A stretch of 64,000 nucleotides of DNA from Elainellaceae cyanobacterium. GTDB lineage: Bacteria; Cyanobacteriota; Cyanobacteriia; CAKZMO01. Below the pieces are notes generated by a model. It saw only the letters and a list, made by a program, of their open reading frames with translations, was not told the DNA's origin and ran no database searches. Numbering within the stretch: position 1 is the stretch's first letter; every line of letters begins with the position of its first letter. The stretch lies in contig JBHJHJ010000024.1 in assembly GCA_050330955.1 (NCBI GenBank), positions 1,217 through 65,216 on the forward strand. Direction: 5' to 3'. The translations under genes and the position numbers were made by a program. This document shows positions 51,493-62,375 of this stretch, piece by piece.

Positions 51493-52239
51493 ATGTACGG
51501 TCTCGATATCAACTTTCTGAACGATCGCAGGGCCGTAGTTGAGGAAAGCCCGACGGCAGCGCCCACAATTCGCGAAGAATCGAATTGGCGGCCTACAATC
51601 GTGGGTGCTGCCGTCGGGCTGGTGCCGCTGATTCTGGTTCTGCTGTCTTGGTTCTGGGTCAGATCATCTACCAGTAATCTGGAGGCTCGGCAGGCAGAGG
51701 TCAACCGACAGCTGGCGGCGCGGGAGGCTGAACAGGCTGAGCTTGATAATGCTCGGGCCCGGGCACAGCAGGCTGAGGAAGAGGCTAGGGCGCTTGTAAC
51801 CGTGTTCGACCAAATTAAACCTTGGTCGGCGCTGCTCCAGAGCATTCAAGACAGCGTTCCCAGTGGGGTTCAGATTGCTGGAGTGGAGCAGGGCGACAGG
51901 GCAGAAGAGGCTCAGAGCATTACGATTTCGGGGTTTGCAGTTTCATTTGATGATGTCAACGACTTTTTGCTGGTGCTGAAGCGATCGCCTTTTATTGAGT
52001 CAGAGGGAACTGGGCTGGAGAGCGCGAACGTCACCGATTATCCTGCTGTTGACTACGAGCTACCCGAGGATGCCACCCCCGGAACCAACGTTCAAGTGCC
52101 TGAGGTGATTGAATTTACCATCGCAGCAGATTTGACTGACCTACCAGCATCTCAACTGCTCGCCGAGCTCGAGAGCACGCTCGCGGTTGGGTTGACCTCA
52201 AGAATTCAGACCTTACGAGACAGAGGAGCGTTTGAATAA
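51493..52239 (+). CDS. pilN: Type IV pilus assembly protein PilN
   Basis: MYGLDINFLNDRR..., single TM helix, coiled-coil. The gene abuts pilM with a 1-bp gap. Confidence 0.75.
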   Translation: MYGLDINFLNDRRAVVEESPTAAPTIREESNWRPTIVGAAVGLVPLILVLLSWFWVRSSTSNLEARQAEVNRQLAAREAEQAELDNARARAQQAEEEARALVTVFDQIKPWSALLQSIQDSVPSGVQIAGVEQGDRAEEAQSITISGFAVSFDDVNDFLLVLKRSPFIESEGTGLESANVTDYPAVDYELPEDATPGTNVQVPEVIEFTIAADLTDLPASQLLAELESTLAVGLTSRIQTLRDRGAFE

Positions 52240-53145: not shown

Positions 53146-55311
53146 TTGAAACGGCATCTCAGAACAGGCAGCCTTGGGCTCGGTCTATTTGCGGGGAGTG
53201 CTACAGCTGTCTTGGTCGCCACTGCGGCGGCTGCGCAGTCGGTGGCGGTGATCACCGATGTCACCATTCGTCAAGCAACGGAGGGGATTGAGGTCATCTT
53301 GACTTCCGACAGCGGCACGCGCCCTCAGATTTTCACCGTGAGCCGCGACAATACGCTGGTAGCGGATTTAATCAACACTGAGCTCAGCTTGGATGGCAGC
53401 AGCGACTTTGTCAGCAATAACCCTGCGCCGGGCATCGCTTCAGTGACAGTGTCTCAGCTCGATGCCAACAGCATTCGCGTCATTGTGGCGGGTGAAACGG
53501 AGCTTCCTGTCGGACAGGTCCGCCAAACTGACGAAGCCATCATATTTGACTTTGCCACGGCGGCGATCGCTACGTCAGATGATGAGCCTGTCCCGGTGGT
53601 CGTAGATCCTGTTCAGCCTTCAGCCCCCCTCCCCGAACCGCCGGTGGTGGCCCAAGAGCCAGAGCCCGTTGAGGCCGATATTGAAACGCCTAATGTATTG
53701 GTTCCCGATCCAGAGGTGCGCATTGATGGGGTAGAGGTGGAGCCAGGCCCCATTGCCAGTACGCCACCCACCCTCCCGCGAGCGATCGCCCCGCCTGTGG
53801 GTGATATCGCTGTAACCAGCATCGATCCCTCCCCCTCCACCATTGCTTTGGGCACGTCCGAAGTGCTGCCCCGTCTGGTGCTCCGCGACGCCCCGGTGCG
53901 CGAGGTGCTCTCTCTGCTGGCGCGGGCGGCGGGACTCAACCTAGCTTTTACAGGTGACCCTGAAGCCGAACTTGAAGCCGATGAAATTACCATTTCCCTA
54001 GACATCGAGAACGAGCCCATTCAGGATGTGTTTAACTACGTGCTGCGGCTCTCTAACCTAGACGCCAGCCGGTTTGGACGCACAATTTTTGCGGGACCAC
54101 GGCTACCCAACTCGGCCCGACAGCTTGTGGTGCGTAATCTGCGCCTCAACCAGATAGACGTGCCGTCGGCGCTCAACTTCTTGGTGGGCCTAGGTGCAGA
54201 GACCGCCGTGAGTCGTCAGCGCCTGGTTACGGCGGTCAACGCAGTTACGGTGGGTGAGGGTGCCGACACCGCCCTCACCCAGACTGAAACTTTTGAGCGA
54301 ATAGATATTGAAACCCAGCGCATCGATTACGAAGATTCTGTTCCCATCCTGCGGGGCCTCCAGGTTATTGGCGATGAGCGCACCAATTCAGTAACGTTGG
54401 TGGGCTCGCCAAGGCAGATCGAAATTGCCGTGGCCCAGCTCATTCCCCTCGACATTCGCCGCCGGCAGGTGGCGGTCAACGTTAAGGTCATCGACGTAGA
54501 CCTCGATGCCATTGACCGGGCCTCGAGCAGCTTCTCGTTTGGCGTCGACGATGCCACTTTTATTCAGGAAGGGGGCATTGGGGTAATTAACTTTGGTGAC
54601 AGTATCCCTGGCAGCGCGCCGGACGATATCTTAACCGACAACTTCGGGGACGTGACCGGCATCGTTCCGTCGTTCGAGTTCGGATTTAATAACGACTTCT
54701 TCGGCCAGCTCCAGCTTGCGATCACCAACAGCAACGCCAAAATCCTTACGGATCCAACCCTGGTGGTGCAAGAGGGCCAGACTGCGCAGCTGGTTCTAGC
54801 CGATGAAGTGATTACTAACGTTGAGATTGAGACAGACGGTACGGGCGACGATCAGACGCAGACGGTTACAGTTGAAACGGAGCCCGCAGGCGTGCTCTTA
54901 AATGTGGAGGTCGATCGGATTGACGATAACGGCTTTGTCAGCCTATCGGTGGCGCCGACGGTTTCAGAGCCCAGTTCCACTGAAGTCGTTACTGTGGAAG
55001 GGGCCAGCATTGAGCTGACGCTGCTGTCTGAGCGTCAGCTGACCTCTGGACAGCTGCGGCTGCGAGATGGCCAAACCATCGTGCTGTCTGGAATTATTCA
55101 AGACACCGACCAGGTATCCTCGACCAAGATTCCGATTTTGGGCGATCTTCCTATCATCGGGGCGCTGTTCCGCCGTACTGAGCGGACAAATGAGCGGAGT
55201 GAGGTAATCATTGTGATGACCGTCAATATCTTAGATGATTCTGAAGGCTCAACGTTTGGCTATAGCTACACCCCAGGGAGTGCTGACTCCCAGGAGCTAC
55301 TCCAGCGCTAA
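53146..55311 (+). CDS. pilQ: Type IV pilus secretin PilQ
   Basis: C-terminal secretin signature KIPILGDLPIIGALFRRTERTNERSEVIIVMTVNIL. Signal peptide. N-terminal AMIN-like region. Confidence 0.85.
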   Translation: MKRHLRTGSLGLGLFAGSATAVLVATAAAAQSVAVITDVTIRQATEGIEVILTSDSGTRPQIFTVSRDNTLVADLINTELSLDGSSDFVSNNPAPGIASVTVSQLDANSIRVIVAGETELPVGQVRQTDEAIIFDFATAAIATSDDEPVPVVVDPVQPSAPLPEPPVVAQEPEPVEADIETPNVLVPDPEVRIDGVEVEPGPIASTPPTLPRAIAPPVGDIAVTSIDPSPSTIALGTSEVLPRLVLRDAPVREVLSLLARAAGLNLAFTGDPEAELEADEITISLDIENEPIQDVFNYVLRLSNLDASRFGRTIFAGPRLPNSARQLVVRNLRLNQIDVPSALNFLVGLGAETAVSRQRLVTAVNAVTVGEGADTALTQTETFERIDIETQRIDYEDSVPILRGLQVIGDERTNSVTLVGSPRQIEIAVAQLIPLDIRRRQVAVNVKVIDVDLDAIDRASSSFSFGVDDATFIQEGGIGVINFGDSIPGSAPDDILTDNFGDVTGIVPSFEFGFNNDFFGQLQLAITNSNAKILTDPTLVVQEGQTAQLVLADEVITNVEIETDGTGDDQTQTVTVETEPAGVLLNVEVDRIDDNGFVSLSVAPTVSEPSSTEVVTVEGASIELTLLSERQLTSGQLRLRDGQTIVLSGIIQDTDQVSSTKIPILGDLPIIGALFRRTERTNERSEVIIVMTVNILDDSEGSTFGYSYTPGSADSQELLQR

Positions 55312-55338: not shown

Positions 55339-55381
55339 TAAGCGTGTTTATCCAACTCGGGTAAACACGCTTATGTTTTTA
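55339..55381 (+). terminator. Rho-independent terminator after pilQ
   Basis: TAAGCGTGTTTAT-CCAACTCGGG-TAAACACGCTTAT followed by GTTTTT. Confidence 0.6.
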
Positions 55382-61299: not shown

Positions 61300-61776
61300 A
61301 TGGACTTTATTCCTGACGCAATCAAACCCTGGCTAAATTTTATCCACCCCATTTTGATGTGGGTGCTGCTTGTTGTCACGCTATATGCGCTCTATTTGGG
61401 CTGGCAGGTGCGCCAAATTCGTTCGGCTGACCCCGAAACGCGCAAAGAACTCGTCAAGAAAAAGGTCAACGTCAAGCACTACCAAGTGGGCTCTGCTCTG
61501 CTGGCCTTTATGGTGATTGGCTCCATCAGCGCCATGGCGGTAACCTACATCAACAACGGTAAGCTGTTCCTTGGACCGCACCTATTGGCTGGGCTAGGGA
61601 TGACGGGGCTGATTGCCACCTCAGCTTCGCTGTCCCCCTTCATGCAGAAGGGTCAAGACTGGGCGCGCTACACGCACATTACGCTGAATATTGTGCTAGT
61701 GGCGCTGTTTGGCTGGCAGGCGGTGACTGGCATGCAGATCGTGCAGAAGATCATCACTAGCATGATGAACGCTTAA
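61300..61776 (+). CDS. DUF4079-like integral membrane protein
   Basis: 158 aa, 4 TM helices. NFIHPILMWVLLVVTLYALYLGWQVR is reminiscent of cyanobacterial/plastid DUF4079 proteins. Confidence 0.45.
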   Translation: MDFIPDAIKPWLNFIHPILMWVLLVVTLYALYLGWQVRQIRSADPETRKELVKKKVNVKHYQVGSALLAFMVIGSISAMAVTYINNGKLFLGPHLLAGLGMTGLIATSASLSPFMQKGQDWARYTHITLNIVLVALFGWQAVTGMQIVQKIITSMMNA

Positions 61777-61803
61777 GCAGATTATTCTGAGCGATCGCGT
61801 CCC

Positions 61804-61982
61804 GTAGCGAATGTCCTCAGTATGTGTTTAGCGACTTTGATAAAAAGGCCATGCATTTTCGTCTTACCCCCCTCAATCCCCCCTTGCAAAGGGGGGAAGC
61901 TGAGTTATCCCCCATTACAAGGGGGAGCTAGGGGGGGTAATCCTATACGCTAAACACGTACTGTCCTCACGACATTCGCTAC
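61804..61982. repeat. Nested-palindrome element with ~30-bp imperfect terminal inverted repeats (MITE-like or bidirectional terminator)
   Basis: Left arm GTAGCGAATGTCCTCAGTATGTGTTTAGCG against right arm CGCTAAACACGTACTGTCCTCACGACATTCGCTAC. Inside are TTACCCCCC...GGGGGGGTAA enclosing CCCCCCTT-GCA-AAGGGGGG and CCCCC-ATTACAA-GGGGG hairpins. It lies exactly between convergent gene ends. Confidence 0.5.
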
Positions 61983-61985
61983 AGA

Positions 61986-62375
61986 TTACAATTTGACCGC
62001 CTGATTCCCAATGCCCTTAATCACTAGCGTCGTGGCATTCAGTCGGCCCGTGATTTGGACCAAATCTCCCGGCTGAACCATCAGCGGCTGCTCAGAGCAA
62101 GCAAACCATTCTGTTGCCTGATAGCGGACCCGCAAGCGGCGATCGCTGGCGGAGATGCTGGTGACCGTACCGGATTTCGGCGGCTCGACGGTCGCTGCGG
62201 CCTTGCTAAAAACTCCCCACATAAACTCCTCCTGCACCCACGCTGGGTGGTTTAGATCGTTATGTAAGCGTTTTTCAAGCGGCGCCGTGGAAACACGGAC
62301 AGGTTTGTCAACCCTACACAAAACGGAAGTTTTCCGGGCAATTGGGTTAGGGGGATACCGCATCTGCGGCGTCAT
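61986..62375 (-). CDS. Hypothetical protein, possible NfeD-like C-terminal OB-fold
   Basis: 129 aa. C-terminal VQPGDLVQITGRLNATTLVIKGI resembles the NfeD short-form beta-barrel. Weak call. Confidence 0.3.
   Translation of the reverse strand: MTPQMRYPPNPIARKTSVLCRVDKPVRVSTAPLEKRLHNDLNHPAWVQEEFMWGVFSKAAATVEPPKSGTVTSISASDRRLRVRYQATEWFACSEQPLMVQPGDLVQITGRLNATTLVIKGIGNQAVKL

Follow-up and report, generated by a model that had tools for sequence, protein, structure and literature searches.

A two-layer palindromic repeat of probable mobile-DNA origin between convergent genes of an Elainellaceae cyanobacterium

The small dispersed repeats (SDRs) of the Nostocaceae are reportedly hairpin repeats of 21−27 nt, which are nested in copies of themselves and inside mini-transposons and are reported to have been mobile recently (Elhai et al. 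2008, Genome Res 18:1484). The REP and REPIN systems are also composed of short, GC-rich palindromic repeats, which are found downstream of genes and often form inverted dimers that fold into a long hairpin. In cyanobacteria, REP dimers may be "inserted within long palindromic sequences" (PMC3733652). The cyanobacterial MITE Nezha is described as ∼130−170 bp long with a 10-bp direct repeat (PMC3184786, PMC6042816). In HIP1-rich genomes no SDR-like repeat was reported outside the Nostocaceae (PMC5861425).

Here, we describe a locus found in 64 kb of DNA from an Elainellaceae cyanobacterium (this whole stretch of 64,000 nucleotides is referred to as the window), the cyanobacterial character of which is seen in 86 HIP1 octamers and a GC content of 56.7%. 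Positions 61804−61982 form one long imperfect palindrome of 179 bp, which we consider, with a probability of roughly 60%, to be a two-layer palindromic repeat of mobile-DNA origin and not a purpose-built terminator. Each of its two inner hairpins has the size reported for an SDR (21−27 nt). The locus differs from the SDRs in that it belongs to the Elainellaceae and in that its central repeat family is found also outside the cyanobacteria. What may be mildly new is a nested repeat in a HIP1-rich, non-Nostocacean cyanobacterium and a core family that spans many phyla. Nothing in these data overturns current ideas on MITEs, REPs or the small dispersed repeats of Elhai; rather, they are extended to a non-Nostocacean, HIP1-rich cyanobacterium. 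The observations may be of use in studies of bacterial repeats, in genome assembly and in strain typing.

Architecture and folding of the palindrome

The components of the locus are, in order of position:

61300..61776, plus strand: gene of a DUF4079 membrane protein (Pfam PF13301, E = 2.7e-55), the upstream convergent flank
61804..61833: left outer arm of the shell, GTAGCGAATGTC-CT-CAGTATGTGTTTAGCG, pairing with 61948−61982
61834..61863: left linker, AT-rich (37% GC), unpaired or in a small side hairpin in the folds
61864..61940: core, one "dimer" copy of a C-run/G-run double-hairpin repeat family, with the outer stem TTACCCCCC/GGGGGGGTAA
61907..61946: strain-variable zone, i.e., the loop of hairpin 2, the closing G-run and the right linker
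61941..61947: right linker, TCCTATA, unpaired in the folds
61948..61982: right outer arm of the shell, CGCTAAACACGTACTG-TCCTCAC-GACATTCGCTAC, pairing with the left arm
61986..62222, minus strand: gene of a 78-aa product without a Pfam family, the downstream convergent flank

The product of the DUF4079 gene has a counterpart of 100% identity in an NCBI Elainellaceae MAG. On the minus strand, two Logan samples contain exactly the 78-aa product, a 129-aa version of the open reading frame is not on record, and syntenic genes of 78−79 aa are present in relatives; most probably, the minus-strand gene has the 78-aa form, 62222..61986. The gap between the two genes comprises 209 nt (61777−61985), of which the element fills 179, in agreement with the initial annotation. 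It starts 27 nt past the stop codon of the DUF4079 gene and ends 3 nt short of the stop codon of the minus-strand gene.

The same annotation described the arms as near-complementary inverted repeats of ∼30 bp enclosing bracketed G/C hairpins, and both descriptions hold. In the outer termini, 61804−61815 (GTAGCGAATGTC) and 61971−61982 (GACATTCGCTAC), 12 of 12 positions are paired. These termini are followed by an indel, with 2 nt in the left arm against 7 nt in the right arm, and then by an inner portion in which 61818−61833 (CAGTATGTGTTTAGCG) and 61948−61963 (CGCTAAACACGTACTG) are paired at 15 of 16 positions. The outer stem of the core is formed by TTACCCCCC (61864−61872) and GGGGGGGTAA (61931−61940), and it encloses both inner hairpins. 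Hairpin 1 (61877−61897) has a perfect 9-bp stem, TCCCCCCTT/AAGGGGGGA, and a 3-nt loop, while hairpin 2, CCCCC-ATTACAA-GGGGG, has a 5-bp stem and is found at 61909−61925 (61907−61927 at the widest extent given).

When folded as RNA, a 198-nt region containing the element is predicted to form a single extended hairpin on either strand, with −91.8 kcal/mol (z −9.6) for the plus strand and −99.4 kcal/mol (z −9.4) for the minus strand; none of 200 shuffled sequences was as stable. As DNA, the shell with the core deleted yields −25.2 kcal/mol (z −7.6), and for the core by itself the value is −24 kcal/mol (z −3.7). Each outer arm taken by itself is without self-structure (0 and −1.7 kcal/mol, z = +0.7 and +0.1).

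Within the window this arrangement is found only here. The 12-mer terminus is present in the two arms only, where 0.24 matches per window are expected by chance. The inner hairpins 1 and 2 are the only hairpins of the type C5+..G5+ in the 64 kb, and the element is the sole site at which two adjacent inverted-repeat segments together pair ∼28 positions over a distance of more than 100 nt. The GC content of the shell is 44%, compared to 57% for the window. The coding capacity of the element is limited to four open reading frames, all of 32−43 aa; exact look-ups of a 35-aa frame on the minus strand and of a 43-aa frame on the plus strand found neither on record as a gene.

The core repeat family and its shells in other genomes

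The core is identified by its sequence as a member of a widespread dispersed repeat family that is present in numerous genera of cyanobacteria and in many bacterial phyla. Members of this family follow the pattern TTACCCCCC-TYAA-TCCCCCC-loop-GGGGGGA ... CCCCC-loop-GGGGG-AG-YTAG-GGGGGGGTAA. The signature, i.e., (T/A)(T/A)AC6-TYAA-TC6-TT-loop-G6 followed by a second C/G hairpin and a closing G-run arm, is seen at 61864−61940, and this segment could be aligned end to end with copies of 11 other taxa (an alignment of 12 taxa). Three nhmmer profiles, built from copies of Nostoc, of Coleofasciculus and of Pseudanabaena/Aulosira/Tolypothrix, matched the window only within 61855−61946, with E values of 2.6e-16, 2.4e-10 and 6.3e-15, respectively. 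In a blastn search of the element against the plasmids of PLSDB, only query positions 61−138 were matched, at 30 places in 15 plasmids; 14 of these plasmids are cyanobacterial (Pseudanabaena, Planktothrix, Nostoc, Leptolyngbya and Microcystis) and the remaining one, a Moraxella plasmid, gave a weak match.

In the collection of species genomes, the signature 18-mer CCCCCTYAATCCCCCCTT was found at no fewer than 120 loci. Among the matches listed, hairpin 1 is closed in 68 of the 86 from cyanobacteria and in 41 of the 49 from other phyla, and the non-cyanobacterial carriers among them include Geobacter, Desulfuromonadales, Nitrospirota, Nitrospinota, Gallionella, Gammaproteobacteria and Planctomycetota. 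Because the full architecture is present in 109 of the 135 matches listed, an origin of the signature from chance composition is unlikely. The core is found as monomers, as dimers like the copy in the window and in tandem arrays; for example, loci L139 and L140 share the same flanks and carry two core units and one, respectively. Its contexts vary as well: copies are naked, inside open reading frames, in tandem arrays or within shells of terminal inverted repeats (TIRs). About 17% of the core matches listed are located in stretches of 300 aa or more without a stop, e.g., in an annotated PKS and a DNA methylase. In 45% of the dimers the loops of the two hairpins are exact reverse complements of each other, compared to 16% of permuted pairs, and the core thus tends toward one long palindrome. 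In the core of the window the two loops match at 5 of 7 positions. From the source organism one core copy was seen, within the 64-kb window.

The family has no counterpart in Rfam: with Rfam 15 the window gave only generic hairpin noise far below the gathering threshold, and six other core-bearing loci gave no matches. A search of full-text literature returned no match to sequence strings or to SDR names. A likeness of the core to the boxC-type repeat of E. coli was considered and dropped, as a blastn search with a Geobacter-type core gave no match in 5,426 E. coli genomes.

Flanking sequences of closed cores are inverted repeats more often than expected from permuted pairs (median Smith-Waterman score 12.75 vs 7.0). 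In the Nostocales and their relatives, at least three recurrent families of shells of about 130−200 bp are found with the core at the center; the shell of family i starts with GGCTACGGTGTACACAC..., that of family ii with GGTGTCAACTTAAGC... and that of family iii with AGAGGTTGTTTGAAAAGT... Family i is flanked by target-site duplications (TSDs) of ∼9 bp, and its targets are the loops of C/G hairpins of the core family. At least this one core-carrying shell is, therefore, a bona fide MITE. Because the shell of family i can hold other cargo (e.g., at locus L113) and the core is found in varied contexts, shell and core are separable modules. Families i−iii may overlap with published cyanobacterial MITEs, e.g., Nezha or the Anabaena MITEs of Wolk et al.

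The element of the window resembles families i−iii in that an inverted-repeat shell of ∼18−30 bp surrounds a central C/G core with asymmetric linkers, in the folding into a long hairpin and in size (179 bp, compared to about 130−200 bp); the shells of these families are mostly intergenic. The difference is that families i−iii recur across many genomes and genera, whereas the arms in the window match none of them, had no second copy in any search and are without a TSD. The initial view of the inner hairpins as the mere interior of a MITE had to be abandoned, as the core is a truly repeated, cross-phylum module. This module, without an Rfam family of its own, is found within several unrelated MITE shells, and the loops of its hairpins are targets for MITE insertion and small indels. 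Its hairpin nature, the lack of TIRs and TSDs and its nesting suggest that the core may spread by a single-strand mechanism that recognizes hairpins.

Outer arms, relatives and strains

No further copy of the arms was found in the 64 kb by exact, 3-mismatch or blastn-short searches, nor in PLSDB plasmids or INPHARED phages by blastn. The same outcome was obtained with blastn-short in 0.93 Mb of core-bearing loci and in seven loci with sister cores. A 22-base pattern that fits either arm, GTAGCGAATGTC-N{2,20}-GTGTTTAGCG, was absent from 185,579 GTDB species genomes and from JGI metagenomes. The source locus is likewise absent from these collections, which implies that the source genome lies outside them; consequently, the absence of copies is weak evidence in either direction. 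A 58-aa stop-free frame composed of the left arm and the core gave no candidates in a word-indexed protein search. An exhaustive phmmer search of 1.84 billion proteins with this frame returned one spurious match to a repeat protein and one open reading frame that covers the core only.

The flanks of the 179-bp segment, which had been proposed to be searched for a duplication, read ...gcgtccc/GTAGCG and CGCTAC/agattac..., and no TSD is found at any offset. No parent IS was seen in the 64-kb window, where the 12-nt terminus is without any other match. The possibility that the shell is a diverged member of families i−iii was discarded, as shell-only nhmmer profiles gave no match at the arms; a weak likeness of ATGTGTTTAGCG to GTGTGTTTGAG of family iii was also dropped.

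Relatives with DUF4079 proteins that are 89−92% identical do not harbor the element. In two of these loci (L007 and L008) the spacer is 77 nt long and contains a plain 13-bp hairpin, in four others (L003−L006) it holds 269 nt of unrelated sequence, and L002 displays a different synteny with another downstream gene. At this level of protein identity (89−92%) the intergenic DNA of the relatives cannot be aligned with the spacer of the window, and no exact empty site can be defined.

A more direct comparison is offered by two Logan short-read contigs of the same organism, L134 and L135, which show no differences over 6124 nt of the left flank and ∼2.05 kb of the right flank. Within the element they differ from the window by substitutions at 61907, 61914, 61920, 61932 and 61946 and by 24 nt inserted in the loop of hairpin 2. 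None of the 29 differing alignment columns lies outside 61907−61946, and the right outer arm is identical in both contigs. The core is thus a mutational hotspot between otherwise identical strains. Similar inserts in the loop of hairpin 2 are present at L024, L097 and L102. The 24−32-nt insert of L134 was considered as a repeat in its own right and rejected, as it was not found elsewhere; a 12-mer that it shares with Leptolyngbya PCC 6406 is part of a repeat of another kind.

Short-read contigs end at 61786, 61863 and 61922, and the left linker (61834−61863) is part of the stretch that is absent from the short-read assemblies, where contigs stop at 61786 and 61863. These three breaks were not accepted as proof of multiple copies, as they fit polymorphism or k-mers shared among cores at least equally well. 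The structure of the locus explains both the assembly breaks and the differences in the spacer between near-identical strains.

Origin of the element and its effect on the flanking transcripts

From the above observations, the element is best described as two layers. The first layer is the core (61864−61940), which is a copy of the dispersed repeat, and the second is the shell (61804−61863 and 61941−61982), an inverted repeat of ∼30 bp that lengthens the hairpin. Together, shell and core may constitute a non-autonomous transposon, mobilized in trans by a transposase that would recognize the GTAGCGAATGTC... termini, and any TSD would since have decayed. The proposal that the segment is a MITE with ∼30-bp TIRs is thereby retained in part: its mobile-repeat ancestry is indicated by the absence from the spacer of relatives, by the lack of a T-tract and by a build and size like those of the core-carrying MITEs of Nostocales, while the designation of its arms as ∼30-bp TIRs is weakened by the lack of a second copy in the searches and of a TSD. 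That shell and core arrived jointly, as a core-carrying MITE of a family unsampled elsewhere, is a tentative conclusion to which we assign slightly less than even odds.

An alternative that we regard as unlikely, yet as one that deserves serious attention, is that a palindrome of the host was invaded by the core. Here, the arms would be a native, lineage-specific 3'-end hairpin, not transposon ends, and the core would have been inserted later in its loop. This scenario agrees with the arms being single in all searches and without a TSD, and with the plain hairpin that occupies the corresponding spacer of this gene pair in the relative L007. Hairpin loops are also known insertion targets in this system, both for the family i MITEs and for the extra inserts of L134, L024, L097 and L102, and REP dimers are found inside long palindromes of Anabaena variabilis (PMC3733652). 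On the other hand, the canonical terminator of this genome (a 15-bp stem and TGTTTTT) does not resemble an AT-leaning stem of 28 bp that lacks a T-tract, and the arms are dissimilar to the hairpin of the relatives. In addition, the 30-nt asymmetric linker between the left arm and the core is typical of MITE shells, and the classified shells of cyanobacterial copies fall into recurrent, and hence mobile, families.

It is rather doubtful that the element is an active or recently active, multi-copy MITE of 179 bp with 30-bp TIRs, of which the inner hairpins would form a mere interior. The TIR-like arms with termini paired at 12 of 12 positions, a size and build like those of families i−iii and the absence of the element in relatives would all be accounted for, and the contig breaks at 61786, 61863 and 61922 are those expected of repeats, as they are also of polymorphism. 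However, a TSD is lacking, and neither the 64 kb nor the collections yielded a second copy. Furthermore, the breaks are found at the boundaries of the core and at the polymorphic junction of hairpin 2 rather than at the ends of the arms, the right arm is crossed unbroken, and the interior is an independent module with a far wider distribution.

A broader and equally doubtful proposition concerns the core itself. The C/G double hairpin may be a self-standing mobile module of at most 80 nt, present across a dozen phyla, that would need neither TIRs nor TSDs for its spread and would use a single-strand (DNA or RNA) mechanism specific to hairpins. It would also serve as a preferred landing pad for TIR-type MITEs and seed larger palindromes and arrays, and the orphan shell would then be a palindrome built or captured around the core instead of a transposon end. 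If this were the case, the 24-nt loop insertion between otherwise identical strains would represent the module caught in action.

The idea of a bidirectional terminator, also put forward initially, finds a likeness to intrinsic terminators in the stable hairpin just 3' of two convergent stop codons. In contrast to intrinsic terminators, which have a U-tract and a stem of 5−15 bp, the element has no U-tract, its paired system spans 179 nt and its sequence is not shared by relatives. A T-tract is missing 3' of the hairpin on both strands, where the flanks read AGATTACAATTTG (plus) and GGGACGCGATCGC (minus), and no terminator-like site was detected in 61777−61985. As a positive control, a canonical terminator with a 15-bp stem and TGTTTTT was found at 55339−55373 of the same window. 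A plain terminator conserved at this position in relatives, part of the outcome that would have spoken against a mobile element, is not what is seen: the sequence of their spacers is unlike and the element is absent. A selected bidirectional intrinsic terminator or RNA element, for which repeat ancestry would be irrelevant, is improbable, because the spacer sequence is not conserved in relatives and otherwise identical strains vary, including by the 24-nt loop insertion. The lack of a U-tract on either strand and of an Rfam family match also speaks against it, even though the hairpin is the only strong one in the convergent spacer and the spacer of relatives holds a hairpin too (L007).

A REPIN-type origin, in which the GTAG...CTAC ends would be two inverted REP units mobilized by a RAYT (REP-associated tyrosine transposase), is suggested by the GTAG with which the element opens and the CTAC with which it closes, as well as by the GTAG-tagged REP families, REP dimers and REPINs known in cyanobacteria (PMC3733652, PMC3116915), but it is highly improbable because the arms are not palindromic units of 20−40 nt (0 and −1.7 kcal/mol), and they are moreover without a further copy in the window or the collections and 145 nt apart rather than adjacent, while the core lacks a GTAG tag.

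Of the terminator idea, what survives is a more modest role for the two-layer repeat of mobile-DNA origin. Both convergent transcripts would either have their ends within a very stable hairpin or pass through it. This hairpin could impede RNA polymerase or 3' exonucleases and so serve in both directions as a 3'-end structure that lacks a canonical U-tract. We infer that such a 3'-end role for both transcripts is probably incidental. In practical terms, the element should be annotated neither as a terminator nor as a gene; spurious open reading frames over such cores are on record elsewhere.

Shell and core as separate modules

Family-i MITEs (GGCTACGGTGTACACAC...), members of one of at least three recurrent shell families that carry the C-run/G-run double-hairpin core in Nostocales, are flanked by target-site duplications of ~9 bp in Nostoc and relatives (L018, L021, L037, L065, L069, L095). 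They have inserted into hairpin loops, and the C/G hairpins concerned themselves belong to this core family (e.g., CCCCCCTTAAAAAG|...|CTTAAAAAGGGGGG in L037), so that the elements are nested. In Nostoc sp. WHI (L113 904-1116), family-i terminal inverted repeats (TIRs) surround a different palindromic cargo of ~170 bp, without the C/G core. Therefore, the TIR shell and the core are modules independent of each other.

The double-hairpin architecture is also found outside cyanobacteria (L026, L034, L036, L040, L047, L094, L101, L103, L121 and others), in carriers that include Geobacter, Trichlorobacter, Geomobilimonas, Desulfuromonadaceae, Gallionella, Sulfurimicrobium and Gammaproteobacteria, where the hairpins display a CCGG linker and the characteristic loop pair TTGTCA/TGACAA. 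Because these genomes carry the same architecture, the data suggest that the core family is either ancient or has spread horizontally.

Copy number, coding context and strain variation

Complete core dimers occur in tandem arrays with a period of 111-114 nt (L139 1117-1260 vs L140 3361-3390; L137 2335-2586). L139 and L140 are metagenome contigs that are identical on either side of the repeat, yet one has a unit more than the other, a VNTR-like copy-number polymorphism. Core copies are also found in frame within long annotated or stop-free ORFs (L013, L012, L045, L049), two of which are:

L013 401-489, Nostoc C052: core copy in a PKS ORF
L012 401-473, Planktothrix: core copy in the ORF of a DNA-modification enzyme

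A 2093-aa stretch in L045 holds four copies and, among the matches listed, 25 of 150 hits to the core-family signature lie in stretches of at least 300 aa. The core repeat thus seems to be tolerated, or translated, inside large proteins.

Short-read assemblies of the organism that the window comes from stop at or within the 179-bp element (L134 2801-2832, the ends of L135 and L001; window 61786, 61863, 61922). One allele among them has a net insertion of 24 nt in the loop of the second inner hairpin, where the 7-nt direct repeat GGCGTAG flanks CCTGCCCGCAG; no copy of this insert was found elsewhere.

Neighboring gene, terminator and other repeats

Window 61986-62375 (-): mechanical 129-aa ORF, overlapping the upstream GH15/KPBB_C gene
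Window 55339-55373: intrinsic terminator of textbook form, 3' of a 721-aa ORF
Window 51547-51620: inverted repeat AGCCCGACGGCAGCGCCCACAATT / AATCGTGGGTGCTGCCGTCGGGCT, within ORF 51493-52239 (+)
Window 36342-36359 / 36522-36539: inverted repeat, 18-nt arms, 89% complementary, 162 nt apart

The 129-aa product is absent from the records, whereas a 78-aa version, starting at 62222 with GGAGGAG upstream, is recorded in two samples. This shorter product, for which Pfam holds no family, is the counterpart of 78-79-aa genes in relatives.

The 721-aa ORF spans 53146-55311, and 28 nt separate its stop codon from the terminator, AAGCGTGTTTATCC-aactc-GGGTAAACACGCTT followed by TGTTTTT. This terminator serves as a useful positive control, showing that T-tract terminators are used by this genome.

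The inverted repeat at 51547-51620 (24-nt arms, 92% complementarity, 26-nt spacing) is unusual for a coding region. A separate, unrelated repeat (...GGGGACCGGAAAA.GTTGGGC..GCGACAATAGTGGGCTGATTTACGCCCTGCGGTACT...) is present in two copies within 8 kb in Leptolyngbya sp. PCC 6406 (L128 819-830 and 4328-4339).
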